DNA of 61,674 nucleotides from a virus. Within the stretch, counting starts at the first letter, position 1. Each line of letters starts with the position of its first letter. The notes beneath the pieces are model-generated. The model did no database searches. It was not told the DNA's origin and was given only the letters and a program-made list of their open reading frames with translations. Shown piece by piece: positions 1 to 61,674 of this stretch. The stretch lies in the IMG/VR virus record IMGVR_UViG_3300028549_000477; one strand, written 5' to 3'. The position numbers and the translations under genes are program-made.

Positions 1-255
1 ACGATCAGAAATCGCATCCTAGAGGCTATCACGAACCGCCTCAAGAATGTGGTGGACAACTCCTATATCCGCTTCGATGAGACCAATGAGCTGCTATGCC
101 GGGATGAAGTTCGCGTAACCGGCACCTACCCCACCACTGCTGAGCCCCGGTGCTTCCATTTCAAGGTCATAGGGGCTGCCCGGCTGAAGATGTGGGAGAC
201 CATCAAGGACGACGAAGTGATCGTCCCTGCCTCGGAGCTGGAGTTCGATGTGGTC
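1..255. repeat. Terminal overlap, copy 1 (identical to 61420-61674)
   Basis: By eye, nt 1-255 match nt 61420-61674 base for base. This implies a 61,419-bp circular, circularly permuted or terminally redundant unit. Confidence 0.9.
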
Positions 256-2201: not shown

Positions 2202-2262
2202 TGTAAATTTGAGGCATGAGCCCCGGCAGACGGCTTTGTGTGGGGTTGGCTGCTGGGGTTCT

Positions 2263-2287
2263 GGGGGGAGCAATCCCCCCTCTTTTC
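2263..2287 (+). terminator. Rho-independent terminator/attenuator after the major tail gene
   Basis: Stem GGGGGGA / TCCCCCC (7 bp), loop GCAA, followed by TCTTTTC. Confidence 0.6.
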
Positions 2288-2317
2288 ATCCACACACCAC
2301 ACGACCGGAGAGCAGAA

Positions 2318-2716
2318 ATGAAGGCAGTTGATCCCAAGTCGAGCTTCGATTACATCCCCGAGTGCGACCGCAATGCCCCCGCCACCGAGCAGACCGTCTT
2401 CGAGCTGAAGGCACTCACTCCCAGAGAAGACCGCCTGCTGGACAATATGCTGTCCATGTCCGATGGTTCGATGAACCTCAAGGTGGGCGACTCCGCGCAC
2501 TTGGCCCTCTGCATGGGGCTGGTCGGGGTCCGCAACTTCTTCGATGGCAGCGGCAACGAAGTCAAGGTGAAGTACACCGGGCGCAAGCTGCACGGGTTTG
2601 TGAACGAGCTGGATGAAGATTTCCTGTCGGTGATCCCGAAGGATGTGCGCTTGGAACTCTCGCGCATCATCCAGAACGGAGCCGATGTGACTGAGGACGA
2701 GGTAAAAAACTCATAG
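2318..2716 (+). CDS. Tail assembly chaperone (G-like)
   Basis: ATG follows GGAGAG and the product is 132 aa. The segment TVFELKALTPREDRLLDNM resembles phage tail assembly chaperones. The gene lies directly upstream of the tape measure, and a slippery heptamer sits 4 nt before its stop. Confidence 0.65.
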   Translation: MKAVDPKSSFDYIPECDRNAPATEQTVFELKALTPREDRLLDNMLSMSDGSMNLKVGDSAHLALCMGLVGVRNFFDGSGNEVKVKYTGRKLHGFVNELDEDFLSVIPKDVRLELSRIIQNGADVTEDEVKNS

Positions 2717-3159
2717 TCCTGTCTAGCCTCTTTGGTGGGTTCGTCAAGCATTCTTGCGCCACCTCCCCCCAGGTGAAGAAGCAATGGGGCTGCGACGAAC
2801 CTACCAAGATGGCTAGATGGGCTCTCCTCTGTTCAAGCTGCCTAGGAGAAGGGTATCATTCAGACGGAAGGGTTTGTACCGAATGCCAAGGAATGAAGGA
2901 AATCCCGCAAGCTCGCTGCCCGAACGCAATGGCCGCGCAGTCGCCCAAGTGGGTGCGAGAAGCCTTCGAGTCCTACACCACTTTCAAGAACCATCAGGTT
3001 CTTCCGGTGGATGGAGGTATTTTGGATCAGTCGGCCTACTTCGTCAATGTGCTCCACTTCTGCGGTAGTGTAGCCGCTGCTCTGGATCGTAGGCGAGATG
3101 AGAAGAACGAGTTGGTGAAGTCAATGGGTGCGAAAAAGCCGAAGACCGGAGGCAGGTGA
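2318..3159 (+). CDS. Tail assembly chaperone GT-like fusion, made by a -1 frameshift at 2704-2710
   Basis: The slip joins G to the frame holding ORF 2773..3159, giving a product of about 280 aa. The extension carries CSSCLGEG and CTECQGMK, which resemble DnaJ-type CxxCxGxG zinc-finger repeats. Confidence 0.55.
2704..2710 (+). promoter_or_regulatory. Candidate -1 programmed ribosomal frameshift site A_AAA_AAC
   Basis: The zero-frame codons GTA AAA AAC give an X_XXY_YYZ heptamer. The -1 frame is open from 2695 through 3159. Confidence 0.6.
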
Positions 3160-6100
3160 TGAAGGCCAGTGACGAAAAAGATAGAGTCATGCGGACATCG
3201 TATGTGATGACCTTCGAGGACATCGTTACTGGCCCTCAGAAAAAAGCCCTCGACAAACTAGCGAAGGATCAAGAGCAGTATCTCGCTCTTAGAGAGAAGC
3301 TCGATGAGAACTACAAGAAACACCAGCTTCGTGTAGGGAGCCATGCCCTAGTTATTTCTGAAGCTAGAGATCGGGCTGCTAAGCTCATTCAGCTCGAAAA
3401 AGCAGGCAAAGATGCAGTGCGTCGTATCGAGCAAAGCTATGCCAAGGGCAGCGAAGCTGAAGAAGCCGCTCGGGCAATGTCCAAAGAAAAAATTTCCGAA
3501 AGAATGGTCTCTATTGAGAGAGACCAAAGCAAGCGTATCGAGAACGAGAAGCTGAGACACAATGCTAAGATGAGAGAACTTGATCTTCAGCTCATGCAAG
3601 AACGAGCCAAGATAAAGAGTCTTGTTGACAACCAGCTCATCAGCGCGACTCAGGCCGCCCCTATGCGGTCTGACTTGACTGATAAGTTCAAGCAGATGAA
3701 GAAGGCCGAGGCTGTTCCTCACCAAGCGGCTCTCGATAAAATGAAAGCTGTTCAGACCAACGAAATTTCCATGCTCAAGCGGGTAATGGCTGAGAAAATC
3801 CAGATCGAAAAGGATTACGATGCTCGCAAAGCCGATGTGATGGGCCGCCGCGCTGCCCGCCAAGCCGCAAGAGATAAGGCTCTCATCGCTCAGATGAACG
3901 CAGCCATCAAAGATGCTGACCGCGTGCTCCGCTATGCCGAGTCCGTTGAGGCTCGCCACACACGCTTCTTGGAGGTACAGGCCCAGCGCCGTGCCAAGAA
4001 CGCAGAACGCTCTGCTAGGTTCCAAGTCGAGAACGAGCGTCGGCGTCTTGCGAACATCGAAAAGTCGATGAAGCGAGAGCAGCAACTAGAGGCCGCCCGC
4101 CAGAAGCAGAAGTTCTCGATGGATAAATTGATGGGGGCTTTGCGAGGCGGTGGTATTGGCGGTATCATCGGCGGCATCGCTGGAAATGTCATGGGTGGAA
4201 TGGGTGGTGGAGCAATGGGCGGAGCCCTTGGCCCTATCATTTCCAGTATGTCTAAGCTCGGGCTTACCGGGAAAGCGGTAGCCGTTGCCTTGAGCGGTGT
4301 TGCCTTGGCAACCATCGGAATGAAGAAAGCATTCACCGATGCCGTGAAGTACGGCACTGAGTTTGAGAAAGCCCTGTCCAATGTCCGTGCGGTTCTCCAG
4401 ACCGGCGACAAGGAACTGGACGCAGCCAATGTCGTGAAGCTGGAAGCCTATGCCCGCCAGCTCGGCAAGACCTCCGTGTTTACCGCCAAGGAAGCTGCCG
4501 ACGCATTCTCCGAGTTGGCTAAGATTGGTTACTCTACAAATGAAATCCTGGCATCTGGTAAGGATGTGTTGGACTTGGCTGCTGCTACTGGCGAGACCAT
4601 GCAGGAGTCAGCCCTCGTTACCTCCAGAACGATCAAGCAGTTCGGTCTTTCGGCCAGTGACACCAAGGATGTCGTGGACCAGATGACCCTTTCGTTCGCC
4701 CGCTCCGCTTTGGATATGAGAAAATTCTCCGAGTCGATGTCCTATGCCGGTCCCTTGGCCCGTGGCGCTGGGGCTTCGTTCACTGAGACAACTGCCTCTC
4801 TGGCCGTGATGGCCGACCGTGGTATCGACGCCTCCAAGGCCGGTACCGCGCTTCGTATGATGTTCGTGAAGCTCTCAGACTCCTCTTCGCTCGCATCGAA
4901 GATGGTGAAGAAGGTAGCCCCCGAGGCCAAGAGCTTCAGCGACAAGATGGCCGCACTGGCCACCTTGAACCTAAACCCCACCGGGGTGAAGAAGTTGTTT
5001 GGCCAGTACGCATCTGCCGGTGCGCAGGCACTCTTGGCCGCCAACGATGCCTACAAAGACTTCGTAAAGGACTTCGCTAAAAATTCCAAGGACTTCGCTA
5101 ATAACACTGCTCGGTTGCAAATGGATAACCTTGCAGGTGACTTGAAGATGCTCCAGTCGGCGTGGGAAGAGTTTTCCATTGCGCTAAACAAAGCATTCCA
5201 AGGCGGAATGCGTTCCGCCGTTCAAGATCTCGTTTCTGCCTTCAGAGAGTTGTCCAACTGGATGAAGGACCACTACGAGCCTCTCAGCAGCGGGGTAAGG
5301 GCCATCGCTACTGGGTTCAGTCTTGCAGTCGATGCGATGAAGCTCATCGTGAAACCGATTGGTGCGGCCATCGAAGCGTTGGACAAACTCTACCAAAAAG
5401 TTCAAGAGATTTCTGGGGACAAGGCTGGGTCCTTGCGTGGTCCGTCTGTCACCAGTATGAAAGTCGTGAATGATTTTGAAGCTCAGCGGAAGACCTATAA
5501 GGAAGAGCTTGAGAAAACCAAGTCTCTGCTGAATGCGGCCAAGATCGAAGAGTCCCTTTACGATGGGATGACAAGCGACAACGCGAACCGTGCTCGCCAA
5601 CAGGCCCGTCTAAAGATCGGCGAACTAACCGGACAAGTCAACAATTTGAACAAGGCGCTTTCTGATGGAGATGCCTTGTACAAGCGCCAGCAAGAGGCTT
5701 TCTCTGCCGTTGCTGAAAGTCGCATCACTGAGGCTGAAGAACGCTTGAAATTCGCACAAGCTGCCGTAGACGCTCAAGGCGGCAAAGCCAGCGCCAAGAC
5801 CCTTACCGAACTAGCAAACTCCATCAAGGCAAAGAAAGAGCTAATAGACCTCATCGCATATTACAAGTATGTGAAGCCTGCCGCCCTCCCTGGAATGCAG
5901 GCTCCTCCCGGCGATAACGAGCTTGAAGGGGAAAATGAGAAGAAAGGCGGCGGTCGCATTCCAGTAGACAAGACCCTTTACTGGTATGAGATGCTTCTCG
6001 GCCAAAAGAAGTGGTACTACGAACAAGCTGCGATGATCGACGAGCAAGGTTGGAAGACCGAGCGCAAAAAGGCTATCAACGCACTGGAAGACAAATTCGG

Positions 6101-34189: not shown

Positions 34190-34216
34190 GCCCCCTGCGA
34201 TAGTGGGGGCATTTTT
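34190..34216 (+). terminator. Rho-independent terminator
   Basis: Stem GCCCCC / GGGGGC, 9-nt loop, followed by ATTTTT. Confidence 0.7.
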
Positions 34217-34560: not shown

Positions 34561-36492
34561 GTGGACCATTGGTATGAACCAATTACCACCGAGGGCGGCA
34601 TCGTCTCGGTGGACACGGAAACGACCGGCTTGAACCCACGGATGGGCGACCGCCCGTTCGCATTCACCTTTACGGATTATGAGGGAGACTCGGCATACCT
34701 GCAAGGTGTGGTCGACCCATTTACACGCAAAGTTTCTTACAGCAAGGATGTTCTGGCTGAACTTCGTCGCGTGATGGAAGATGCGAGCATCACCAAGGTG
34801 TTCCATAACGCCAAGTTTGACATCGCGATGTACGAGTCTATCGGCATCAAGGTCCGTGGGAAAATCTGGGACACCTTGATAATGGCCCACATTGACGACC
34901 CTGCTTCCGAGCTTGGGCTCAAGCCATTGTGCAAGAAGAAATTGGACATCGATGACGACGATCAGCGCGACCTCAAGGATGCAGTTCGCCGCGCCCGCGT
35001 CAAGGCCAAGAAAGATGGCTGGAAGCTCTCTGAGGCGGTAGAGGCCGATTATTGGATGGCCCCTATGGCTTTGGTGCGTCGCTATGCGCTCACCGACACG
35101 GAGCGCACGATGGCACTCTACTGGGGTTACGAGGAGCTGATGAAGAGCGACGAGGGCTACAAGAACCTCGTCGAGATGGAGCACAAGGTCCTGTGGGTGA
35201 CTAAGCGCATGGAGGACCGCGGCATCGCTATGTCGCGCAAGACCATCGACGAGCTATTCACCTACTACTCCGAGATCATCGAGACGCAGGACGCCATCAT
35301 CAAGAAGCTCGGCTATGCCGATCTGAATACGAACTCTCCGAAGCAGATGCAGAAGGTCTTCTACGACGACCTTGGTATGACGCACATCTACAAGGTGCGC
35401 AAGGGCAAGAACGGTCGTACCAAGACTCTTACCACTGACGCATCGGCTTTAGAGCGGTGGGCCAATGAGGGCAACGAGTTGGCCAAGGCCATCATCACCC
35501 GAGGAGAGGCCGAGCACCAAATCCAGGCTTTCATCGACACCTTCCGCGCAGAAGGGATGACCGAGACCTCCCTAGCAGGAGAGGACTTCATCCTGCATCC
35601 GAACTACCGCACCTGTGGCCCGATAACCGGGCGCATCAGCTGCACCAAGCCCAACCTGATGAATATCAGCAACACCGGAACCAAGAAGTCCGATGTGCAG
35701 TATCGCATCAGAGAAGTGTTCGTTCCTCGCAAGAACCGCATTCTCTACTTCGCAGACTATTCGCAGGTAGAAGTGTGGCTCGCGATGTTCTTGTCGCAGG
35801 ACCCTTACGGCATGGAGCAGCTTCTCAAGGGCGAGGATATGCACGGCAACATGGCCCGCAAGGTATGGGGCAACCGCTACGACTTCTCGAATGAGGCAGT
35901 CTTCAAGAAGTGGCGCAAGCGGGCAAAGTTCATTCTATTCGGCTTGATCTACGGTGCAGGGGTCCCAGCCATTCAGGCACAGGCTGGATGCGACGAAGCC
36001 GAAGCAATGCAGATCAGGGATATTTTCTGGAAGACATTCAAGGGCCTCTACGCATTCAGCAACAAGCTCAAGGTGCAAGCGGAGCGCCTCGGATATGTGG
36101 AGAACCCCTTTGGGCGCATCTACCCAGTTCCGGGCAATGAGTCCTACAAGGGGCTCAACTACTTGGTGCAAGGCACTGCCGCAGAGATTATGAAGAGGGC
36201 ATTGATAAATCTCGATGCAGTTTTTCAGCGCAGACTTTCCAAGTTCTCACCGGCCAAGCTACTATTGACCATCCACGACGAAGTGGCCGTGGAAGCCGAT
36301 GAGAGAGACACGGAGGTTCCTGGCATCATCCTAGCCTGTATGCAGGACGAGTTCCACAAAGTTCTTGGGATGCCGCACCCATTCAAAGCGGAAGTTTCAA
36401 TCGCTCGCGTCTCGTGGGCATTGAAAGAAGAGATGGACCCACAACCGCTTCCGGCAGACCTGTCCAGATGGTTGCCCGAGAGGAGAAAGTAA
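34561..36492 (+). CDS. Family A DNA polymerase with 3'-5' exonuclease domain
   Basis: Exonuclease motifs VSVDTETTGL and FHNAKFDI. Polymerase motif A DYSQVEVW, motif B RKRAKFILFGLIYG, motif C LTIHDEV. Confidence 0.9.
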   Translation: MDHWYEPITTEGGIVSVDTETTGLNPRMGDRPFAFTFTDYEGDSAYLQGVVDPFTRKVSYSKDVLAELRRVMEDASITKVFHNAKFDIAMYESIGIKVRGKIWDTLIMAHIDDPASELGLKPLCKKKLDIDDDDQRDLKDAVRRARVKAKKDGWKLSEAVEADYWMAPMALVRRYALTDTERTMALYWGYEELMKSDEGYKNLVEMEHKVLWVTKRMEDRGIAMSRKTIDELFTYYSEIIETQDAIIKKLGYADLNTNSPKQMQKVFYDDLGMTHIYKVRKGKNGRTKTLTTDASALERWANEGNELAKAIITRGEAEHQIQAFIDTFRAEGMTETSLAGEDFILHPNYRTCGPITGRISCTKPNLMNISNTGTKKSDVQYRIREVFVPRKNRILYFADYSQVEVWLAMFLSQDPYGMEQLLKGEDMHGNMARKVWGNRYDFSNEAVFKKWRKRAKFILFGLIYGAGVPAIQAQAGCDEAEAMQIRDIFWKTFKGLYAFSNKLKVQAERLGYVENPFGRIYPVPGNESYKGLNYLVQGTAAEIMKRALINLDAVFQRRLSKFSPAKLLLTIHDEVAVEADERDTEVPGIILACMQDEFHKVLGMPHPFKAEVSIARVSWALKEEMDPQPLPADLSRWLPERRK

Positions 36493-36749
36493 TGAGCATC
36501 AAGGCAACGGACCTAATCAACACCATCTGCGCGAAGATTGGCATTCCCCGAGAAAAGTCGCAACAGGACCAGTTTTTGAATAAGCAGGAGCTTTTGCAAA
36601 TTCTGGCCCACATCGACAAACAGGAAATCCACATCGGGTCTTTGAAGCGTGAGGTTGACGAGCATCGTACCAAACAGGCGCAAGTGGAAGCCTTTCTTTC
36701 CACGATGAACAACAGTCTCGCTGAAGGGGCAGAGAATGAGCGAAATTGA
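36492..36749 (+). CDS. Hypothetical protein
   Basis: The ATG overlaps the polymerase stop (TAATG). 85 aa. Confidence 0.5.
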   Translation: MSIKATDLINTICAKIGIPREKSQQDQFLNKQELLQILAHIDKQEIHIGSLKREVDEHRTKQAQVEAFLSTMNNSLAEGAENERN

Positions 36750-38799
36750 TAAGAGCTACCGCAGAGTCTTTGAAGCGCACGGCATCGAGTTCGTGAAGGA
36801 CTCGGGGGACGGCATCAATCTTATCGCAGACTGCCCATTCTCGGGCAAGGAAAAAAAGCTCTATGTGAACATCGAGACGGGGCAATGGGACAGCAAGGTC
36901 GCAGGGATTTCGGGCAACCACTACACATTCCTCAGAGAAATCTACAATTGGGCTTTGACCCAAACTGATGACTCGGACCTGTTGCAGATCGCCCAGCATC
37001 GCAAGCTGCCCATCTCTGCCTTCAAGGGCAAGATTGCGCGCAACCCATTGACGGGCAAGTACCTCATTCCTGAGTACAATGTTGACGGAAAGCTCACGGG
37101 TTTAGGTGCATGGTTTCCTGGGTCAAAGGGAGTGTTCCGCACCCCAAAGACCAATGTGCAGCTGAATGGAGCGCACAAGGTCCAAGAGGGCGACATCCTA
37201 TTTATCTGCGAAGGAGAATGGGATTGGTTCGCCCTTCAATGGACATTCGATGCTCTAGGGAAGACCAATTGCAAGGCATTGTGCGTTCCCGGTGCCGCGA
37301 CGCTGAAGGATGAGTGGCAGCCGATCTTCAAGGACCATTCTGTCCGGTGTTGCTACGACAACGATGATCCGGGCCGCAAGGGAGAGCTCAAGGCAAAGAA
37401 GTTGCTTGAGCCGGTCGCATACGATCTCAAGTTCGCGCATTGGAAGCAGGACCTTCCGGACGGCTACGACATTCGGGATTTGGTCACAGAAATTTGCAAC
37501 GGCAAGGATGCCGAGAGCTTGGCCAAGAAAGCCTACATGAAGCTCATGGCAATGTTTGACATTCGCACCAACCAAGAGTTTAGGGAAGGGCGCCCATCTG
37601 GGGGCGCAGAGAAAAAGGAAGAGGACCCAGGCCCCATTCCTAGCGCAAAGGAGCTAGAAGAGGGGTATTCGAAATGGTTGAAGTTGGCCTCTTACACGCC
37701 ATTAGATGTAATATTTGGGACCATTTTTGCGAACCGCATCGACGGTGATCCAGTCTGGACATTTATTATCGCACCACCATCGGGGTCAAAGACTGAGCTT
37801 TTGATGACTCTCAATGGGTCCCCGGAAATTGAGACTACCACAACATTGACGGCCCCGGCACTGATTTCGGGCATCAAGTTCCCCGAGGGCCAGGACCCAT
37901 CGTTGTTGGTCAAAGTGAACGGCAGGATGTTGGTCATCAAGGACTTCACCACCATTCTGACAATGAACACTGGCGCACGAGATGAGGTGTTCGGTGTTCT
38001 TCGTGATGTGTACGACGGCTATGTGGAAAAGTTCTTCGGTACCGGCATCAAGAAGAGCTACAAGTCCAAGTTCGGCATTCTAGCCGGTGTTACCCCGGCC
38101 ATCGACGCAGTGAGCGCCCAGCATTCAGCTTTAGGGGAACGGTTTTTGAAATTTAGGCTTGATCGGTACGAGACTGATGCAGGTGAAAAAGCCAAGATCA
38201 AGCGGGCTTTAGGGAATGTTGGCCAAGAGACGAAGATGCGCGCCGAATTGCAGGCTCTTGCCAAGCGAATGCTCAAGAAGCAGTTGCCCAAAGAGCTGCC
38301 TGCATTGCCCGAGGAGATGCTGGAGCGGGTCACAGCAATTGCGATGTTCACAGCCTACCTTCGGGGCGCCGTAATGAAGGACCCGTACTCCGGTGAAATG
38401 CTCTGCTTGCCTGTTCGTGAAGTTGGAACACGACTCGCTAAGCAGATGGTAAAGCTAGGAGTCGGCATCTCTGTTTTCAGAGATAAGCAGGTCATTGACG
38501 AAGAGACCCTGGCCATTTTGAAGTTGGTGGCATTGGACACGGCCCCGGATCGGGTGAATGCGTTGGTGAAATTTATTTGGGATAACACCAAACAGGACCC
38601 CAAGGCTTTCATCGGGACCAAGGAAATTGCATCGGTCGTCAAGATGTCAGACGCGACTATTTCTAGGGTCATGCAGGACTGCTTGGTCCTGGGCCTCATC
38701 CAACGATCAAAGAACGGCGATGGACCCTTCGGTGGGAACAAGTACCGGCTCTCTGCATCTCTGGAGGAATTGGTTCGCACTTCCGGCATTTATCCTTAG
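36736..38799 (+). CDS. Bifunctional primase / P-loop helicase
   Basis: N-terminal zinc-binding-like ADCPFSGKEKK. Toprim motifs FICEGEWD and CYDNDDPG. P-loop APPSGSKTE. 687 aa. Confidence 0.8.
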   Translation: MSEIDKSYRRVFEAHGIEFVKDSGDGINLIADCPFSGKEKKLYVNIETGQWDSKVAGISGNHYTFLREIYNWALTQTDDSDLLQIAQHRKLPISAFKGKIARNPLTGKYLIPEYNVDGKLTGLGAWFPGSKGVFRTPKTNVQLNGAHKVQEGDILFICEGEWDWFALQWTFDALGKTNCKALCVPGAATLKDEWQPIFKDHSVRCCYDNDDPGRKGELKAKKLLEPVAYDLKFAHWKQDLPDGYDIRDLVTEICNGKDAESLAKKAYMKLMAMFDIRTNQEFREGRPSGGAEKKEEDPGPIPSAKELEEGYSKWLKLASYTPLDVIFGTIFANRIDGDPVWTFIIAPPSGSKTELLMTLNGSPEIETTTTLTAPALISGIKFPEGQDPSLLVKVNGRMLVIKDFTTILTMNTGARDEVFGVLRDVYDGYVEKFFGTGIKKSYKSKFGILAGVTPAIDAVSAQHSALGERFLKFRLDRYETDAGEKAKIKRALGNVGQETKMRAELQALAKRMLKKQLPKELPALPEEMLERVTAIAMFTAYLRGAVMKDPYSGEMLCLPVREVGTRLAKQMVKLGVGISVFRDKQVIDEETLAILKLVALDTAPDRVNALVKFIWDNTKQDPKAFIGTKEIASVVKMSDATISRVMQDCLVLGLIQRSKNGDGPFGGNKYRLSASLEELVRTSGIYP

Positions 38800-38943: not shown

Positions 38944-40704
38944 ATGGCAAGGTCTGCAATGAAGATTGATCTCAAGGGAAGCGGAATGTTGGAAAGTGGT
39001 GCTCCGGTACATCCCGGTGATGTTGGTGATCTCGGGGAAGGTAACGAGCTCACATCGCTCCGTGCCGAAGTCTTGAATGGTGTCGGCAAGTTGACCAAGG
39101 ATGAGTTTGCCGATTTTTGGTCGGAAGAAGGCCACGATGAGATCGGCAACATGGCCGAAGCCAAGGAGTTCCTTGATGGCGTGAAGAGCTTGCCTCTGAT
39201 GCGCGTCTTCAAGGAAGATCTTTCCGAGTTTGTGGAAACCATCAAGAACGATGCCGAAACCGAAGAAGGTGAAGGCGATGGTGACTCTGAGGGCGAAGAG
39301 AGCGATGAAGGCTCCGGTGAAGGTGAAGCCGACGATGGTGAGGGCGAGGGTGAAGGTGAAGATGGCGAAGGCGAAGGTGACGAAGAGGGTGATGAGGACG
39401 GCGAGGGTGAGGGCGACGATGAGGACGGAGAAGGGGAAGATGAGCCATCCGATGAGGAAGGCGAGGGCAACCCCGATGCAGACTCCGAAGAGGAGAACAA
39501 GGCGAATGGTGCCGACGACGATCTGCTCCATCGTGTACAGGAGCTAGAGCGGTGGCGCAAGGATGAGATCGACCCTCGCATGGAAGGCGATCTGCCCGAG
39601 CCCAAGGATGCAGCGCCCAAGGCCGAGGCCCCCAAGAACGATGTGAAGCCCGCTCCCAAGGATGCCCCTGACATGGGCTGGCTTCCCCCCGAGCAGTTGC
39701 TCAAGCTGATGAAGGGCGGCAAGAAGGCCGATGCCCCCAAGGCAGGGAGCGAAGAAATTCTGCCCGAATGGTTTGACAAGGCTATTCAGCTCATCAAGGG
39801 AGGCAAGCCATTGTTCCTTGCCGGTCCTGCCGGATGCGGCAAGACCCACACCTGCGCGATCATCGCTCGGTACCTCGGCTTGCCGTTCGGCGCGCATTCC
39901 TGCTCTGAGGGGATGCACTCGGGCGACCTCGCAGGGATGCTCCTGCCGGTGGAAGCGGGGGGCAACTTCGTCCATGTGCCTTCCCTGTTTATTTCCATGT
40001 GTGTCAAGCCTGGCATCTTCCTGTGGGACGAGCTTGACAATGCTGACGCGAACTTCTTGGTCGGCTTCAACATGATGGTGGCTCAGCGCGAGCTCTACAT
40101 TCCTAGTCGTCGGCTGAGCACTCTTCCCGAGTTTGAAGTTGCCGATGTGCTTGAGTATTGGAGCAAGCATTTCGGTGCCAAGGCTTGCGAGGAGCGCATC
40201 GGTCGCGAGACCATCAAGAACCTGCGCGATCTGCGCGAGATGCTCGGCAAGGACAACTATGCCAAGTTGGATGACTCATTCGGCAAGGTGACGCTCCACC
40301 CCGACTTCCACATCATTGCGGCCGCCAACACCTTCGGGCATGGTGCGAACGCAGTATATGCCGGTCGCAATCAGCTCGATGGTAGCACGCTTGACCGCTT
40401 CCGCATCGGTACGCTCAAGCTCACCTACTCCCCCAAGGTGGAGGCAGCATTGCTGAGCGAGGATGTGCGTCGCTGGGCTCATTACCTCAGAGAAGCTCTG
40501 GCTCATCTGAGAATGGACCGCAAGCTCGTCACCACTCGCTTCCTCAAGGACTGTTCCGACATGGAGCGCGAGTTCGGATGGTGCGAGAGCGATTTCGCGG
40601 AGCAGTTCTTTGCCGACTTCCCATCGGTGGACGCTGAAAAGGTCGCCAAGCGTATGCATGAAACCATCACGGCCGATCTGATGGCCGGAAAGAAGGTTGT
40701 ATAA
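38944..40704 (+). CDS. MoxR/CobS-like AAA+ ATPase with a hyper-acidic N-terminal tract
   Basis: Walker A LAGPAGCGKTH and Walker B IFLWDELD. HPDFHIIAAANT ... GRNQLDGSTLDRF. A GE/GD-rich tract is encoded at about 39250-39500, followed by a PK-rich linker. Confidence 0.8.
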   Translation: MARSAMKIDLKGSGMLESGAPVHPGDVGDLGEGNELTSLRAEVLNGVGKLTKDEFADFWSEEGHDEIGNMAEAKEFLDGVKSLPLMRVFKEDLSEFVETIKNDAETEEGEGDGDSEGEESDEGSGEGEADDGEGEGEGEDGEGEGDEEGDEDGEGEGDDEDGEGEDEPSDEEGEGNPDADSEEENKANGADDDLLHRVQELERWRKDEIDPRMEGDLPEPKDAAPKAEAPKNDVKPAPKDAPDMGWLPPEQLLKLMKGGKKADAPKAGSEEILPEWFDKAIQLIKGGKPLFLAGPAGCGKTHTCAIIARYLGLPFGAHSCSEGMHSGDLAGMLLPVEAGGNFVHVPSLFISMCVKPGIFLWDELDNADANFLVGFNMMVAQRELYIPSRRLSTLPEFEVADVLEYWSKHFGAKACEERIGRETIKNLRDLREMLGKDNYAKLDDSFGKVTLHPDFHIIAAANTFGHGANAVYAGRNQLDGSTLDRFRIGTLKLTYSPKVEAALLSEDVRRWAHYLREALAHLRMDRKLVTTRFLKDCSDMEREFGWCESDFAEQFFADFPSVDAEKVAKRMHETITADLMAGKKVV

Positions 40705-44491: not shown

Positions 44492-44606
44492 AAGGCGAAA
44501 CCTCGGCCATAGAATGAGCCGAGGTCTGCGGATAAATGGGCGTCCCGCACTGATGAGCCAGCCCGAACAATGAAAACCGAAAGCCCTCGGGGCAGGAGAA
44601 TGGAAA

Positions 44607-46570: not shown

Positions 46571-46625
46571 GCGCACGGAAATTTTGCGCACGAAAAATCG
46601 CGCATGAAAAAGAGGGCATGAAATG
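46571..46625 (+). repeat. Tandem 14-16-nt GCGCA(C/T)G-A-tract repeats
   Basis: Units are GCGCACGGAAATTTT, GCGCACGAAAAATC, GCGCATGAAAAAGAGG and GCATGAAATG. The last unit includes the start codon of the next gene. Confidence 0.6.
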
Positions 46626-46970
46626 TTCAAGACCGTTCTGTGGATTGATGCTGAGCCGTGGACCGAGCAACAGGTAGAATGGGCTGACCGGCTGAAAGGG
46701 GTGCTACGGATGCCCGCTGACACGCCCGATGCCGATCTGTTGGGTGGCGTGGTGCGGGGGAACTACCATTGGGCCGAGGTGCTAGGGCGAATGTGCAGGG
46801 AGAACAATGCACAGGCCGTCGTGGTACGGGCCGATGACTTGACTCCCCGCTTCTGTACTTGGATGTTTGCCCGGACCAAGAAGTTCTATGATGGCCAGCT
46901 TGGAATGGCTGCCGAGGTTTGGGTGGATGTGGGCCAGGGTGCCGGTTACGAGGTGGTCGGTCATCTCTGA
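46623..46970 (+). CDS. Hypothetical protein
   Basis: RBS AGAGGG. 115 aa. Confidence 0.5.
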   Translation: MFKTVLWIDAEPWTEQQVEWADRLKGVLRMPADTPDADLLGGVVRGNYHWAEVLGRMCRENNAQAVVVRADDLTPRFCTWMFARTKKFYDGQLGMAAEVWVDVGQGAGYEVVGHL

Positions 46971-47000
46971 GGAGTAGAGGGGTAGAGGTTGGTGATGAGC

Positions 47001-47026
47001 GGGCTCTCCTTCGGGGGAGCCCTTTT
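47001..47026 (+). terminator. Rho-independent terminator
   Basis: Stem GGGCTCTCC / GGGGAGCCC (9 bp, one G-U pair), loop TTCG, followed by TTTT. Confidence 0.75.
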
Positions 47027-47039
47027 CCATTCAGAGAGT

Positions 47040-47560
47040 TCGGATGGGTGGGGATGGGGTGGGTTTTAGAGCGGGTGCGGGTGATGGGGTTTTAGGGTGC
47101 GCGGGTGATGGGGCCAGGTTTGGCGGGGCCGATTGGGTGATGGGTGGTGGTGCGTGGGTTGGGGTGGTGATGCGTCGTGGGGGGTTTGAAGAATGCCCGG
47201 TGGGGTGGGGGTGGGCTGGCCATACGATGAGCGGCGGTGGTGGGGGAATGGGCGGGGTGGTGGGGTGGGGGTGGCTGAATGGTGGAAGGGTGGGGTGGGA
47301 AGGGTCATTGAATGAGGGTGAAGGGGGGAGAGGAAAAATGCCCCATAAGCCGGTTTTAGGCGCTCATACGATGGCTTGGTTTTGGCGCCTGAATGGGCCA
47401 GGGGGAGGGGGCCTGGGGATGCCCTGGCCGGTGGGCGATGGGGGAAAATCCAATGATGCCCCATTCCCCACTGAACCTGTGAACTATGGGGGGGGGGAGT
47501 GCTCTAATGGTAGGGAAGTGGCCCCCTTATATAGTGGGGGGAGTGGGGGACATTGTAAAC
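47040..47560 (+). other. G-rich, C-poor non-coding island with multiple G-quadruplex motifs
   Basis: Hand counts give 34 G and 4 C in 47041-47100, and 34 G and 7 C in 47101-47160. Four-run G4 motifs lie at 47046-47063, 47242-47271 and 47288-47304. A G10 run lies at 47488-47497. Confidence 0.85.
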
Positions 47561-47590
47561 TTCTTTTTACACAACTAATCAAAAAAAAGT

Positions 47591-47619
47591 TTGACCGATA
47601 CCGCTTTGAATGATAGATT
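47591..47619 (+). promoter_or_regulatory. Promoter P7
   Basis: TTGACC, 17-nt spacer, TAGATT. An A8 tract lies upstream. Confidence 0.6.
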
Positions 47620-47694: not shown

Positions 47695-48468
47695 ATGGCA
47701 AAGAACACCAAGACTGTGAACGCTAGCGAAGTTGAAGCGATTGTAGCCGCCCACGCCAAAGCGGTTGAGGCGAAGGTGGCCGAAGGGGGAGCGGTTGTTC
47801 TAGTGTCCGACTACAACCGTCCGGCTATCACTCCGGAGATTGTAGCGGAAGTGGAAAAGCTAGCTACTAGCTATGATGCGGAATTGGCCAAAGCAAAAGC
47901 CATTATTGCCAAAGCGGGTGAAGATTTCTTTGCCACTTTGGAAGCACACAAGACAAAGAACGAAGGGGGCAAGGCACTTGCCCAAAAGTTTGAACGAGCT
48001 AAGGTAATGCGGGACGGAAAAGAGGGGGAAGTAGCTTTGCCTTGCGCTTTGGAAGAGGTGGAGGTGGATGGGCTCTACTTTGGTTGTGTGGCCGTGGCCC
48101 CCCAAAATTGGGAAGTGGCCGTTGGTACTCGCTTCGCAGGGGGCGCACTCAAGGCGAAGGGGGGACAGGGAGTGCAAGCAATTGCCCAAGTGCTTTGGGA
48201 AGTGGCACGCAACAGCGATAAGGGAGCAATTGAAGTGTTGGGACACTTTGCGGCCCCCTCTAGCCGTGGGAGTGGTGCAAGTGCCGAAAAGGTCACCTTG
48301 ACAGCTAAGGTAGCCAAAGCAGAAGCCAAAGCCAACGAGCTAGAAGCACTCGGTGCTGAATTGGGTAATCTCGCTTTGGAACTGGCCACGGCCAAGGGGG
48401 AGAGGAAACAGGCTATCAAGGACCGGATTGTAACTATTCAGGCTCTCTTTGCTAAGGGTTCTAACTAG
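47695..48468 (+). CDS. Ala/Lys/Glu-rich hypothetical protein in a stand-alone transcription unit
   Basis: 257 aa with RBS GAGG. It has its own promoter (P7) and terminator. The C-terminus looks like a coiled coil (KAEAKANELEALGAELGNLALELATAKGERKQ). Confidence 0.65.
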   Translation: MAKNTKTVNASEVEAIVAAHAKAVEAKVAEGGAVVLVSDYNRPAITPEIVAEVEKLATSYDAELAKAKAIIAKAGEDFFATLEAHKTKNEGGKALAQKFERAKVMRDGKEGEVALPCALEEVEVDGLYFGCVAVAPQNWEVAVGTRFAGGALKAKGGQGVQAIAQVLWEVARNSDKGAIEVLGHFAAPSSRGSGASAEKVTLTAKVAKAEAKANELEALGAELGNLALELATAKGERKQAIKDRIVTIQALFAKGSN

Positions 48469-48479
48469 CTAGGATAGAG

Positions 48480-48514
48480 GGAGGGGGACCGATTGGTTCC
48501 CCTCCTTTCTTTCT
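48480..48514 (+). terminator. Rho-independent terminator
   Basis: Stem GGAGGGGGACC / GGTTCCCCTCC (11 bp, one G-U pair), loop GATT, followed by TTTCTTTCT. Confidence 0.65.
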
Positions 48515-48532
48515 GAAAAGGTCGGTTTGAAT

Positions 48533-48616
48533 ATGCTACTGCTCTGTTATTTGATCCTGCTAGTTGGTGCTCTCGGTCTCTGTCTTGTTCCCGGTAAAGC
48601 CCACGGAGGATTCTAA
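48533..48616 (+). CDS. Possible 27-aa hydrophobic peptide
   Basis: Hand-translated: MLLLCYLILLVGALGLCLVPGKAHGGF. The RBS is weak. It lies between terminators. Confidence 0.25.
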   Translation: MLLLCYLILLVGALGLCLVPGKAHGGF

Positions 48617-48617
48617 A

Positions 48618-48713
48618 ATGGTAAGAGGATTGTTTTTGATTTCCCTGTTCGGTGCTCCGGTTTATTGCGTACTACAATGGGGGATGATGCACGGTTTACG
48701 GCCTGTTTTCTAG
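48618..48713 (+). CDS. Possible 31-aa hydrophobic peptide
   Basis: Hand-translated: MVRGLFLISLFGAPVYCVLQWGMMHGLRPVF. GGAGG lies 8 nt upstream. Confidence 0.25.
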   Translation: MVRGLFLISLFGAPVYCVLQWGMMHGLRPVF

Positions 48714-48733
48714 TTGGTTGGTTGGTTGCGTGT

Positions 48734-48766
48734 TCCCCCTTCCCTAGTTGGGAAGGGGGATTTTTC
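48734..48766 (+). terminator. Rho-independent terminator
   Basis: Stem TCCCCCTTCCC / GGGAAGGGGGA (11 bp), loop TAGTT, followed by TTTTT. Confidence 0.75.
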
Positions 48767-48783
48767 ATTTTTGGAAAAGGGGG

Positions 48784-48808
48784 AAGGTACATTAGATGTA
48801 CCTTTTTT
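48784..48808 (+). terminator. Second, tandem terminator
   Basis: Stem AAGGTACAT / ATGTACCTT (9 bp), loop TAG, followed by TTTTTT. Confidence 0.7.
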
Positions 48809-48920
48809 GGGTTTTTTGATGGGTGAAAAAGGGTGAAAACAGGGAAGGGGGAATTTGGGTAGGTAAAAGTAATTTTACTTTTGATGGGTATAAGTCGTTG
48901 TAATATAAGGACTTACATCA

Positions 48921-48942
48921 TTATAATCAAAATTGATTATAA
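48921..48942. repeat. 22-bp palindrome TTATAATCAA-AA-TTGATTATAA
   Basis: Perfect 10-bp inverted arms. The same TTATAATCAA arm occurs in the 32-nt elements at 22696 and 49047. A TATAAT reads outward on both strands. Confidence 0.9.
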
Positions 48943-49046
48943 CAGGGAAAAAGGGGGAAAAGGGGGGAAATTATCGTCAAAGAAGTCATTAATGCCCAAA
49001 TTGGTGAATTTATCGTTTTCAAACTTCTATATACTAGATCGATGTT

Positions 49047-49078
49047 GTTATAATCAATTTTGATGTTGATAAGAAATA
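49047..49078 (+). repeat. AT-rich 32-nt element, copy C (30/32 identical to 22696-22727)
   Basis: GTTATAATCAATTTTGATGTTGATAAGAAATA. The extended -10 TGTTATAAT lies at 49046-49054. Confidence 0.85.
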
Positions 49079-49133
49079 GACTATACCTATTATAAAAGTC
49101 TGAAAACCAAGAAGCTAAATCGTTTGCGTGCAA

Positions 49134-49159
49134 TAGGTCGGACGACCTAATTATTTTTT
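49134..49159 (+). terminator. Weak hairpin plus T run (possible terminator)
   Basis: Stem TAGGTC / GACCTA (6 bp), loop GGAC, followed by ATTATTTTTT. Confidence 0.35.
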
Positions 49160-49229
49160 GTTGTTTACCTACTAACCAATTTCCCTACCCCCTCCAAAAA
49201 TCTTTTTTTGTTTGCACTACTAACCAATT
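49154..49229 (+). repeat. Direct repeat pair T6-7 GTT..CTACTAACCAATT
   Basis: CTACTAACCAATT occurs at 49169-49181 and 49217-49229. Each copy is preceded by a T-run-GTT(G)TTT stretch. Confidence 0.85.
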
Positions 49230-49256
49230 CTCAAAGGTGCCAAAAATCCCCATTCG

Positions 49257-49296
49257 TCCCCCTCTCCCCCTGTTGCCCCCTGTTTCCCCCTGTTCT
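49257..49296 (+). repeat. Helically phased C5 tandem repeats (CCCCCTGTTN x3, plus CCCCCTCT)
   Basis: CCCCCTGTT occurs at 49266, 49276 and 49286 (10-bp period). Another C5 run lies at 49258. Confidence 0.9.
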
Positions 49297-49548
49297 GTGC
49301 TAGGATAGCAGGGGAAGGGGCCTATTAGCCGATTAGAGGCCCCTAGAAGCTGTTTTTAGGGGGTAGGATTACACCGAGTGCTACAAAGGGGGGAAATCGT
49401 CTTGTAGGTACCTTAGAACCGATAATAGAGGGGGTGAATTTTCATCTTTTTACCCCTTGACAAATTGAAAAAAGAATGTAGTGGGGGGAGTGCGGAATGT
49501 AGCATTCCTCGGATTTTGGGCTGGGATAGTAGGGGCCACCTCCTCCAA

Positions 49549-49764: not shown

Positions 49765-50631
49765 TTGGAGAAATGGCGAAAAAAGCGTACCTTGCCTCCA
49801 GCCCCCACCTCACCCCTTCACGGCCATCAAATGATCCTGAACGAACCCGAAAAGCGTAGACCTGGCCGTCCCCGGCGGGACACGACCATTCGAATTGACC
49901 CAAAAACGGGCCTAAAGCCCACTAGCACGCTGCATCAGCGGTGGATCAAGAACCGCCCATCCACCTTCGAACCATCTCCCGGCTCCCTCCCTTCACCATC
50001 CGCCTCCGCCGCCTCCCCCTCTTCTCAGAGAATGACCGCCAGCGGTCAATTGGGCAACTCGAACAAGATTTTCACGAGTCACGAGGCGCTCATTCCGAAG
50101 TACATCACCAACGCCCAAGAGGCGGTAAAGCTGCTAGAGCTCGTGCGGCATAAGATGGAGGTGTTCGGGATCACCCAGAGCGAGCTCAGCCGGTTCACCG
50201 GGGCTACCATCACGACCGTCGGGCGATGGCTTTCCGCCCGGGCGACCCCGAGTAGGGTGTACTGCGACCTGCTGCGCCGTTTTCTGGAAACGCCCATCTT
50301 GGATCGGAGCGATGTGGTAAGGGTGAGCTTTAGGTTGGTGGCCGAAATGCCCGAGGCCGGCACTCCCGAGTTCGAGGCGGCCATGCAGGATCTATTCCAT
50401 CGGAGCAGGACCGAGGCAGAGATGGAGCAGCTGCGCCGGGGGGCTCCCGCCCTGTTCTCTCAGCCGGTAGCAACTCGGAAGCGCCGCGCCCCCAAGGCAG
50501 ATGCCGGTCCCACCCCCATCGAGGACGATCTGGACGCCGAGCCATCGCTGGTGATCCGCTCGGCCGACAGCATTCCCGCGGATTTCAACGACGACTGGGA
50601 CCCCGAGCCCGGCGAGGAGACCTTCGAATGA
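49765..50631 (+). CDS. XRE/Cro-CI-type HTH DNA-binding protein with an AT-hook-like N-terminus
   Basis: HTH segment GITQSELSRFTGATITTVGRWLS and AT-hook-like RRPGRPRRD. The start is uncertain: TTG 49765 or ATG 49828. Confidence 0.6.
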   Translation: MEKWRKKRTLPPAPTSPLHGHQMILNEPEKRRPGRPRRDTTIRIDPKTGLKPTSTLHQRWIKNRPSTFEPSPGSLPSPSASAASPSSQRMTASGQLGNSNKIFTSHEALIPKYITNAQEAVKLLELVRHKMEVFGITQSELSRFTGATITTVGRWLSARATPSRVYCDLLRRFLETPILDRSDVVRVSFRLVAEMPEAGTPEFEAAMQDLFHRSRTEAEMEQLRRGAPALFSQPVATRKRRAPKADAGPTPIEDDLDAEPSLVIRSADSIPADFNDDWDPEPGEETFE

Positions 50632-61399: not shown

Positions 61400-61674
61400 A
61401 CATTGACATTCCTCCCGTCACGATCAGAAATCGCATCCTAGAGGCTATCACGAACCGCCTCAAGAATGTGGTGGACAACTCCTATATCCGCTTCGATGAG
61501 ACCAATGAGCTGCTATGCCGGGATGAAGTTCGCGTAACCGGCACCTACCCCACCACTGCTGAGCCCCGGTGCTTCCATTTCAAGGTCATAGGGGCTGCCC
61601 GGCTGAAGATGTGGGAGACCATCAAGGACGACGAAGTGATCGTCCCTGCCTCGGAGCTGGAGTTCGATGTGGTC
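61396..61674 (+). CDS. 5' part of the wrapped gene that continues at nt 1-735 (3' truncated by the window end)
   Basis: The GTG overlaps the upstream stop (GTGA), with AAGGAG upstream. From 61420 onward the sequence is identical to nt 1-255. Confidence 0.6.
   Translation, partial: MNIDIPPVTIRNRILEAITNRLKNVVDNSYIRFDETNELLCRDEVRVTGTYPTTAEPRCFHFKVIGAARLKMWETIKDDEVIVPASELEFDVV
61420..61674. repeat. Terminal overlap, copy 2
   Basis: Identical to nt 1-255. Confidence 0.9.

Follow-up and report, generated by a model that had tools for sequence, protein, structure and literature searches.

What is a tract that is half guanine and starved of cytosine on the coding strand doing between two gene modules of an uncultivated siphovirus? 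The virus is IMG/VR record IMGVR_UViG_3300028549_000477, and the whole stretch of 61,674 nucleotides analyzed here is referred to as the window. The tract measures ca. 0.55 kb. An initial reading made from the letters alone (here, the sequence-only reading) had described positions 47040 to 47560 as an island packed with G-quadruplex (G4) motifs and devoid of genes, and had offered four hypotheses, namely, a replication origin primed by an R loop or G4, a cluster of Chi-like sites, a packaging region, and a structured noncoding RNA (ncRNA).

Strand-specific composition of the tract

G makes up 49% (256 nt) and C 14% (72 nt) of the island at 47040 to 47560, which also has 82 A and 111 T; between 47000 and 47300, the share of G ranges from 46 to 64% per 100 nt. 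The counts made by hand in the sequence-only reading proved exact (34 G and 4 C in 47041 to 47100; 34 G and 7 C in 47101 to 47160), and so did the bounds that it gave, a terminator at 47001 to 47026 and a promoter at 47591 to 47619. Its statement that such a skew is lacking in the coding parts of the genome also held when all 61,674 nt were scored in 500-nt segments: 47001 to 47500 had the highest GC skew (0.536), and the runner-up reached 0.333. The mean G4Hunter score of the island was 1.11, compared with 0.045 for the genome, i.e., ca. 7 standard deviations out (the standard deviation among 520-nt segments was 0.15). The island is the strongest outlier of the whole genome for both GC skew and G4Hunter score, and it contains 40 runs of three or more G against 6 runs of three or more C.

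The individual motifs reported earlier were all found, including the three canonical G4 motifs, the G10 run at 47488, the G6 and G5 runs at 47536 and 47545, and the internal repeats, which we located at 47070/47094 and 47199/47259. Of the six canonical G4 motifs that the genome has on its + strand, five fall within the island (47046 to 47418; merged motifs with four or more runs of at least three G and loops of 1 to 7 nt). How far this amounts to being packed with G4 motifs depends on the comparison. The content is far above that of the genome, and it is above that of mononucleotide shuffles of the island (P between 0.003 and 0.01), both for runs of three or more G (40 versus 31; P = 0.003) and for G4 motifs (5 versus 1.8; P = 0.005), but it did not exceed that of dinucleotide-preserving shuffles for runs (40 versus 36; P = 0.12 to 0.13) or motifs (5 versus 3.1; P = 0.11), and the mean G4Hunter score was identical (P = 0.51). 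The tracts of the relatives described below behaved likewise, except for the runs of four or more and five or more G in one of them (L055). The comparison with composition-matched shuffles that the sequence-only reading had itself proposed thus went largely against G4 motifs as the defining feature, in the window as well as in the relatives. These motifs are present because the G and GG contents are very high, and the anomaly to be explained is the strand-specific excess of G over C. Composition is the primary signal, and the G4 motifs follow from it.

The only open reading frames (ORFs) in the island are, as had been noted, a Gly/Trp frame on the + strand and a Pro/His frame on the − strand. 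Codon log-odds were negative in every frame (best value, −0.55; neighboring genes, +0.10 to +0.41), in agreement with the noncoding status proposed earlier. The 189-amino-acid (aa) Gly/Trp ORF (47044 to 47613) lacked 3-base periodicity (P = 0.29, compared with 3e-4 and 7e-17 for the two flanking genes) and had no Pfam match. A 91-aa subframe (47338 to 47613), preceded by the Shine-Dalgarno (SD) sequence GGAGAGG 5 nt before its ATG at 47338, also failed the coding tests (log-odds of −0.30; periodicity P = 0.82) and had no counterpart in L055. The suggestion of a structured G-rich ncRNA fared no better: the fold z-score was +0.36 and no Rfam family reached its gathering score in the tract, the sole match at an E value of ≤1 being a spurious archaeal snoRNA at 46944 to 47000. 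No tRNA was found in the tract either. Protein coding, a structured ncRNA or Rfam family, and a tRNA were rejected on the codon, periodicity, Pfam, Rfam, folding, and tRNA results. All genes of the window lie on the + strand, and the G-rich strand is, as stated before, the nontemplate strand.

The same tract in related phages

Relatives were collected by a search of a large protein database with the large terminase subunit (TerL), which gave a clade with 49 to 79% identity whose contigs were fetched (designated here by L numbers). They are syntenic, with the order SpoVG, gap, helix-turn-helix (HTH) gene, ParB/methyltransferase (MTase), small terminase subunit (TerS), TerL, portal, and capsid. 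Tracts in which G greatly exceeds C were found in five lineages, the window and four others (TerL identity, 51 to 79%), at locus GC contents from 36 to 63% and in all cases upstream of the late genes. In the window (genome GC, 55%), the tract at 47030 to 47590 has 260 G and 78 C. The contig of L055 (TerL, 79%; GC, 63%) begins within the tract, which is thus partial (1 to 335). In L062 (TerL, 59%; GC, 44%), the tract at 3330 to 4320 is T-rich, with 5 to 11% C and 24 to 34% G per 100 nt. The tract of L059 (TerL, 55%; GC, 36%), at 2596 to 3700, has skews of +0.8 to +0.93 and only 1 to 5% C per 100 nt over 900 nt, together with a G content of ca. 40% locally (40 to 43% at 2800 to 3100) versus ca. 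20% for the locus. Finally, in L070 (TerL, 51%; GC, 39%), where the tract spans 1 to 400, the first 200 nt contain 75 G and 4 C. Runs of four or more G were 6 to 14 times denser in the tract than in the remainder of each locus. The left flank was assembled in the window, L059, and L062, and a strong intrinsic terminator lies directly before the tract in all three (at 2561 to 2594 in L059 and 3300 to 3323 in L062).

The sequences themselves have little in common. The tracts of the window and L055 align solely at an 18-nt palindrome, TGTAAACTTCTTTTTACA, and the adjacent −35 element of a promoter. A motif search gave partial overlaps between lineages and no motif present in all of them. GAATG was more frequent than in dinucleotide shuffles in three tracts (P = 0.058, 0.004, and 0.001), its complement CCATTC stands at the 5′ edge of the tracts of the window, L055, and L059, GGTGG was enriched in three tracts, and TAGTGGGGGG is common to the window (two intergenic copies and a third at 34201) and the L062 tract (at 3956, just after TATAAT). 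What is conserved is composition, strand polarity, and place, not sequence. Position and skew are both kept in the relatives, a comparison that the sequence-only reading had named as one on which its island could fall.

The tract is missing in clade member L056 (TerL, 63%) and in members with 49 to 53% TerL identity. What L056 has at the corresponding position (1864 to 4722) is a cluster of six genes on the minus strand, together with a spacer that contains TTTTTAGGTCTG repeats; this may be a different regulatory or lysogeny switch.

To put these skews into perspective, two background sets were scanned, one of 53 loci (554 kb) from phages with a terminase ca. 45% identical and another of 80 further loci (742 kb). 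The first contained no 300-nt segment with an absolute skew of 0.6 (maximum, 0.42). The second contained two loci at that level (both 0.64) and a third at 0.58, and of these three, two are ordinary A/G-rich genes and the other is a gene-poor locus, L120. Given this rarity, five co-located tracts in one clade are not a matter of chance. The L120 stretch (2255 to 4200), in a locus with 34% TerL identity and 32% GC, covers ca. 2 kb with few genes, lies 6 to 7 kb upstream of TerL, and reaches skews of +0.93 per 100 nt; it is possibly a weaker, distant analogue outside the clade.

A regional mutation bias would also affect the neighboring genes. At 4-fold degenerate sites, however, the GC skew was +0.02, −0.17, and +0.01 in the three genes nearest to the tract and −0.01 to −0.33 in those flanking the tracts of L055, L059, L062, and L070. 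Since these sites show no G excess, local mutation bias does not account for the composition, which is therefore maintained either by selection or by some process peculiar to the tract. The same skew at the same place in relatives suggests a strand-polar element of control or replication that is under selection. The tract is real, noncoding, and defined by its composition, and it appears to be selected.

Outside this clade, relatives were scarce. No GenBank phage was recovered in DNA searches in near and distant modes, tblastn with the portal and DNA polymerase found no cultured relative above ca. 26% identity, and the genes flanking the island had no relatives in IMG/VR. Scans of IMG/VR with the terminases of the relatives returned identical contigs only, and an HTH profile had no match in a metagenome scan. 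A clade TerL profile run against metagenomes and GTDB genomes gave matches of ≤46% identity, besides a 2-kb fragment (L123) at 55%. Within the clade, strain-level pairs were 99.8 to 100% identical, and following the evolution of the tract between strains was given up for that reason.

The control region and what the tract may do

A largely noncoding control region of 2.7 kb (47.0 to 49.8 kb), of which the island forms the G-rich arm, parts the replication/recombination operon from the HTH, ParB-MTase, terminase, and structural genes. All features below are on the + strand unless a strand is irrelevant to them. The replication/recombination module (22.8 to 47.0 kb) forms a transcription unit of ca. 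24 kb whose last gene (46623 to 46970; 115 aa) has a coding signal of +0.10, a 3-base periodicity with a P value of 3e-4, a 4-fold-site GC skew of +0.02, and no Pfam or PHROG match. Because the module ends at 47.0 kb, the island stands at the exact 3′ end of this operon, directly after the intrinsic terminator at 47001 to 47026 (9-bp stem, UUCG loop, and T-tail). The core of the tract (47027 to 47330; skew of +0.5 to +0.78 per 100 nt) has the CCATTC motif at its start and is made of degenerate short tandem repeats with periods of ca. 11, 20, and 24. A second, milder part (47331 to 47549; skew of +0.24 to +0.37) consists of GAATG-plus-G-run units, with the G10 run at 47488 to 47497 and TAGTGGGGGGAGTG at 47532 to 47545. 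The latter belongs to a 20-nt direct repeat, ATATAGTGGGGGGAGTGGGG, of the form AT(A/G)TAGTGGGGGGAGTG(G/C)GG, whose copies at 47529 to 47548 and 49476 to 49495 are 90% identical, 1.95 kb apart, and flank a 257-aa gene.

The palindrome TGTAAACTTCTTTTTACA follows at 47554 to 47571, just upstream of the −35 element. It is identical in L055 (304 to 321), although its surroundings have diverged, and it is therefore probably an operator. The sigma-70-type promoter at 47591 to 47619 (TTGACC, 17-nt spacer, TAGATT, and TG extension; the −35 sequence GTTTGAC is conserved in L055) serves the 257-aa gene (47695 to 48468; coding signal, +0.19), a lineage-specific, Ala/Lys/Glu-rich gene that has a promoter and terminator-like hairpins of its own. 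When 1.84 billion representative proteins were searched, its product had a single homologue, P0122 of L055, the N terminus of which is rich in Lys, Ala, and Pro and resembles a histone H1 tail. We considered the 257-aa gene as an ancestral neighbor of the tract in L062 and L070 and rejected it, as it has no detectable similarity to the genes at that position.

Noncoding G-skewed DNA resumes at 48470 to 49100, with G-run arrays (GGGTGAAAA and GGGAAAAGGGGGG) and terminator-like hairpins at 48734 to 48760 and 48780 to 48808. It runs into an AT-rich core (49000 to 49100; 76% AT), flanked by a perfect 19-bp inverted repeat (48926 to 48944 and 49046 to 49064), around which a simple promoter scan placed candidate promoters on both strands. 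It may be in the segment around this core, 48870 to 49300, that the genome has its true origin or its switch point. On the other side, the skew is reversed (49100 to 49300; −0.3 to −0.5), with three copies of CCCCCTGTTG, and the C-run arrays of this right arm repeat, imperfectly and in inverted orientation, the G-run arrays of the left side (inverted repeats I2 and I8). The control region ends at the HTH-domain gene (49765 to 50631), which is conserved in the clade (by tblastn to L055 and by BLASTP to an L069 protein, with an E value of 1e-11). An arm with C in excess of G is also found upstream of the HTH gene in L055 (1400 to 2800) and in L069 (100 to 1300; down to 2 G versus 15 C per 100 nt), and it is weak or absent in L059, L062, and L070. 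In L069, the sequence before this gene (1 to 1350) is a noncoding, G-depleted spacer rich in ATTATTATTATTAATAATA-type repeats.

Three processes depend on the ratio of G to C, namely, the formation of cotranscriptional R loops, that of G4 structures (cytosines compete with guanine tetrads), and the loading of Rho, which needs C-rich, G-poor RNA. The reading that we prefer, tentatively and at less than even probability, is that the tract is the R-loop- and G4-prone arm of an intermodule control or origin region that also blocks read-through. The tract would act while single-stranded or under transcription. Since all genes are co-oriented, read-through would have the polarity that yields G-rich RNA, and polymerases passing the terminator would make an untranslated, G-rich, C-starved transcript. 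This RNA would have no cytosines on which to fold back, would be a poor substrate for Rho, and in most lineages would form with the C-rich template a hybrid of greater stability than the DNA duplex. A persistent R loop would be expected to follow, with G runs or G4 structures on the displaced strand. Located beside the AT-rich core and its inverted repeats, such an R-loop zone could open the DNA, prime it, or both, for the family A DNA polymerase (34561 to 36492) and the primase (36736 to 38799), giving a transcription-assisted origin of the ColE1, mitochondrial CSB II (the second conserved sequence block), T7, or herpesvirus oriLyt type. The same R loop would stop early transcription from entering the next module.

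We prefer this reading because of the hybrid energetics, the origin-like surroundings, and the lack of an initiator among the scanned ORFs. For the first, the nearest-neighbor free energy of the sense RNA-DNA hybrid minus that of the duplex (ddG) had its locus-wide optimum in the tract in both the window (z = −6.6; minimum at 47042) and L059 (z = −5.5), and the tract was in the top 1.4% in L055 and L070. The composition known to form R loops, G clusters followed by at least 100 nt with ca. 40% G or more on the nontemplate strand, was present in the window and L059, while L062 had 24 to 34% G. The surroundings comprise short direct-repeat families, the AT-rich core with its 19-bp inverted repeat, and the mirrored G-run and C-run arms. 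As for the replication genes, no initiator family was recognized among the ORFs scanned, a scan that left out several small ORFs of the replication module, and a family A polymerase together with this lack would suit transcription-primed or recombination-primed initiation. No RNase H gene was identified in the genome. We are fairly confident of the R-loop/G4 propensity of the tract, whereas origin function is the weakest step. Among the hypotheses of the sequence-only reading, an origin primed by an R loop or G4 is the best single one, unproven as it stands.

Several observations weigh against this preference. The promoter scan revealed none that would read into the tract, just upstream of which lies a strong terminator. 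The tract has no DnaA-box cluster and no KOPS (FtsK-orienting polar sequences), its G runs are without helical phasing, and there are no regular iterons (three or more of 17 to 22 bp at even spacing), the repeats being degenerate and mostly in two copies; the AT-rich core is 1.5 kb away, and no initiator gene was found. By the ddG values, computed with parameters after Sugimoto 1995 and SantaLucia 1998, the T-rich tract of L062 was unfavorable for the hybrid (z = +1.2), so R-loop energetics are not universal and only the excess of G over C is. To these must be added the lack of a G4 excess over dinucleotide shuffles and the absence of the tract from L056 and other clade members, both described above, as well as the failure of the TerL profile to provide a usable new clade member or a host. 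Nor does the cumulative GC skew help. The curve is V-shaped, with a minimum at ca. 19 to 20 kb and a maximum at ca. 49 kb, but almost all genes have a bias toward C at their 4-fold degenerate sites, and the structural genes have the strongest (−0.47 in the major capsid gene and −0.40 in the tape measure gene). Codon usage therefore drives the curve, and since the bias at these sites tracks codon usage and expression class, the cumulative skew is uninformative on the origin and was rejected as a means to place origin or terminus.

The tract resembles several known systems in its possible working and is a demonstrable member of none. At the mitochondrial CSB II, as outlined in PMC3488243, a G-rich RNA engaged in a hybrid G4/R loop holds the RNA on the DNA and makes the replication primer. 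The tract, like the mitochondrial light-strand promoter/CSB II system, has a G-rich nontemplate strand. However, CSB II is one short conserved block of G runs with a defined upstream promoter, while the phage tract extends over 0.5 to 1.1 kb, is not conserved in sequence, and has a terminator before it and no promoter found. In ColE1 (RNA II) and at T7 and T4 origins, a transcript of a few hundred nucleotides forms a persistent hybrid that is extended by a Pol I-type polymerase. The phage is similar in having a family A polymerase, an AT-rich segment nearby, and no initiator among the scanned ORFs, but those origins depend either on particular promoters and on RNA structure or on an AT-rich element for unwinding that lies just downstream, and none is defined by a GC skew on the kilobase scale.

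The nearest architectural analogue to a G-rich arm with an AT-rich core and inverted repeats is oriLyt. In Epstein-Barr virus (EBV) and Kaposi's sarcoma-associated herpesvirus (KSHV), it combines AT-rich palindromes with G-rich transcribed repeats that form R loops or G4-associated R loops, according to the summaries in PMC12203722 and bioRxiv 10.64898/2026.08.31.748444. Those are eukaryotic viruses with origin-binding proteins and mapped transcripts, and there is no homology to the phage region. The likeness to R-loop zones of eukaryotic genomes is one of definition by composition. In GC-skewed zones such as CpG-island promoters, G-rich terminator pause sites, and immunoglobulin switch regions, it is positive skew on the nontemplate strand, and no particular sequence, that predicts cotranscriptional R loops. 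The position of the tract after a terminator resembles that of the G-rich pause elements, but in a phage or bacterial setting Rho and coupled translation alter the rules.

A broader formulation, which we put forward only as a possibility well below even, is that the clade carries an undescribed class of control element coded by composition, with a kilobase-scale arm of G in large excess over C serving as a promoter- and initiator-independent origin and as the early/late boundary. Some members would mirror this arm with one of C in excess across the AT-rich core, and polarity alone would set the fate of transcripts and single strands, R-loop/G4 capture in one direction and access for Rho in the other. 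The weaker L120 look-alike, in a very distant phage, hints that such an element may be more widespread. In the phage literature searched, we found no account of a conserved, composition-defined tract of this kind. The origins and module boundaries of most uncultivated phages are unmapped and are usually sought as sequence motifs. If the formulation is true, regulatory or replication elements would be recognizable, and perhaps engineerable, from composition alone, provided that a tract with strong GC skew and divergent sequence is indeed selected and functional, and there would be a bacterial-virus counterpart to the mitochondrial and herpesvirus R-loop/G4 origins in a system that lends itself readily to inversion and replacement. 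The tracts also appear to break short-read assemblies and may fragment the genomes of this clade in metagenomes.

The strongest competitor is a transcription boundary coded by polarity and having no part in replication, a minority possibility to be taken seriously. Sense RNA of the tract would be immune to Rho and antisense RNA an ideal substrate, so that the region would insulate early from late genes and suppress antisense transcription into the replication operon, late expression would need antitermination, and the right arms with C in large excess found in several members would act as Rho-sensitive leaders of late genes. Blockage by a G-rich or U-rich nontemplate strand may provide a factor-independent fail-safe behind the terminator. 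The ratio of C to G is both the sole universal property of the tracts and what Rho reads at its utilization (rut) sites, which are defined by this ratio in untranslated RNA over ca. 80 nt or more. This boundary fits the universal property at least as well as an R loop does, L062 included, where R-loop energetics fail. A rut-like composition (C-rich and G-poor) was found in the antisense RNA of the island and in the sense RNA of 49100 to 49300, while the sense RNA of the island is exactly the opposite (49% G and 14% C). The succession of terminator, tract, and promoter, which did not vary wherever the left flank was assembled (three lineages), the arms of opposite skew that the window, L055, and L069 have before the HTH and late genes, and the promoter candidates on both strands about the AT-rich core all suit a boundary. 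However, a Rho-proof tract terminates nothing by itself, its length of 0.5 to 1.1 kb is less well explained, Rho normally clears untranslated antisense RNA without a special tract, and the C-rich right arm is weak or absent in three lineages. All in all, the insulator based on Rho polarity is nearly as plausible as the R-loop origin.

It is unlikely that the tract serves a phage or host protein as a set of binding sites or as a single-stranded landing pad, or that it gives a sponge RNA for such a protein. The phage encodes a recombination toolkit, and the candidates for such a ligand would be the Sak4-like annealing protein, an SSB-like protein, the SpoVG-domain protein, a GT-preferring RecA-type recombinase, or a regulator of GAATG/CCATTC or G runs. 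Each tract is a patchwork of short direct repeats, and GAATG, GGTGG, and TAGTGGGGGG recur between some of them. Against binding sites stand the lack of a motif in all lineages and of any alignment even at 79% TerL identity, apart from the palindrome and −35 element described above, the absence of phasing and of an RNA structure signal, and GGA/CsrA-type motifs that, judged by hand, seem no commoner than base composition predicts.

Slightly more doubtful is a role in end protection or as a recombination hotspot, through a Chi-like cluster or a telomere-like polarity in which the G-rich strand runs 5′ to 3′ toward the AT-rich core from both sides and would block RecBCD-type nucleases at ends in the core. 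Known Chi sequences are G-rich, and the G-run and C-run arms are mirrored about the core, but this symmetry is weak in L059, L062, and L070, and no known Chi octamer was enriched. The Chi cluster suggested earlier found no support among known Chi sequences: the tract has no Escherichia coli Chi and only three GNTGGTGG matches, the Chi sites of Lactococcus lactis and Staphylococcus aureus are likewise absent, and AGCGG is unremarkable. Seven partial contigs from different assemblies start within the tract or control region (L001, at window position 47234, L055, L058, L069, L070, L071, and L072), as they would at physical genome ends; assembly breakage at repeats or at poorly sequenced extreme composition could explain these starts equally. 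In the circular assemblies of the window and of L059/L060, the junction lies outside this region, and the terminase is of the T4 type, which more often goes with headful packaging, without fixed ends. A packaging site, also proposed earlier, finds no support in the location of the tract, which precedes the presumed small terminase gene (53098) by 5.5 kb and TerL by 6.2 kb, or in the assembly, in which no fixed ends are seen.

It is improbable that the tract is a functionless by-product, arising from slippage expansion of C-free repeats or from strand-biased damage in a dispensable spacer. The fast turnover of its sequence, the degenerate tandem repeats, and its absence from L056 and more distant relatives would agree with such an origin, but the same polarity at the same position in five lineages of 36 to 63% GC, the lack of a G excess at adjacent 4-fold sites, and the rarity of similar skews in 1.3 Mb of other phage loci would not. 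In addition, G is enriched besides the depletion of C, as the doubling in L059 illustrates, and compact phage genomes rarely keep 0.5 to 1.1 kb of junk.

Two last explanations are scarcely credible. A Gly/Trp-rich protein, from the 189-aa ORF or the subframe at 47338, would account for the open frames, the good SD sequence, and an analogous SD-ATG frame in L055, but it is contradicted by the coding tests, by frames that run through the promoter and differ across the conserved palindrome, and by a peptide in L055 that is unrelated to that of the window. A sequencing or assembly artifact (two-color poly-G or a chimera), to which the tendency of contigs to break here might point, is unlikely because the sequence is complex rather than homopolymeric and a second assembly agrees (the Logan assembly of run SRR21758068, possibly from the same sample, matches the window from 47234 on with 99.99% identity); moreover, analogous tracts occur in four other lineages from different samples and assemblers.

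The remainder of the genome

The first and last 255 nt of the window (1 to 255 and 61420 to 61674) are identical and lie inside an ORF, and the assembly is therefore circular or permuted, representing a complete genome of ca. 61.4 kb. The late module extends on the + strand from 49.8 kb through the circular junction to ca. 22.6 kb and includes the HTH gene, ThyX, ParB-methyltransferase, the small and large terminase subunits, portal, major capsid, tape measure, very large tail proteins, and an endolysin. Besides the polymerase and primase, the replication module encodes an SNF2 helicase, a RuvC-like resolvase, an exonuclease, a Sak4-like AAA_24 protein, a DUF669 protein, an AAA_5 ATPase, and a SpoVG-domain protein.

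Within the replication operon, between an 86-aa ORF and the SpoVG-domain gene, we found a full-length type II hammerhead ribozyme (44493 to 44567; + strand) that scored 39.5 bits against a gathering score of 37 and has intact CUGAUGA and GAAAC core sequences. In eight related loci, none of the Rfam families attained its gathering score. Second to the island in G skew within the genome is a coding stretch (39112 to 39594), where tandem repeats of the GAAGGTGAAG type give the AAA_5 ATPase an acidic Glu/Gly/Asp repeat in its N-terminal half.

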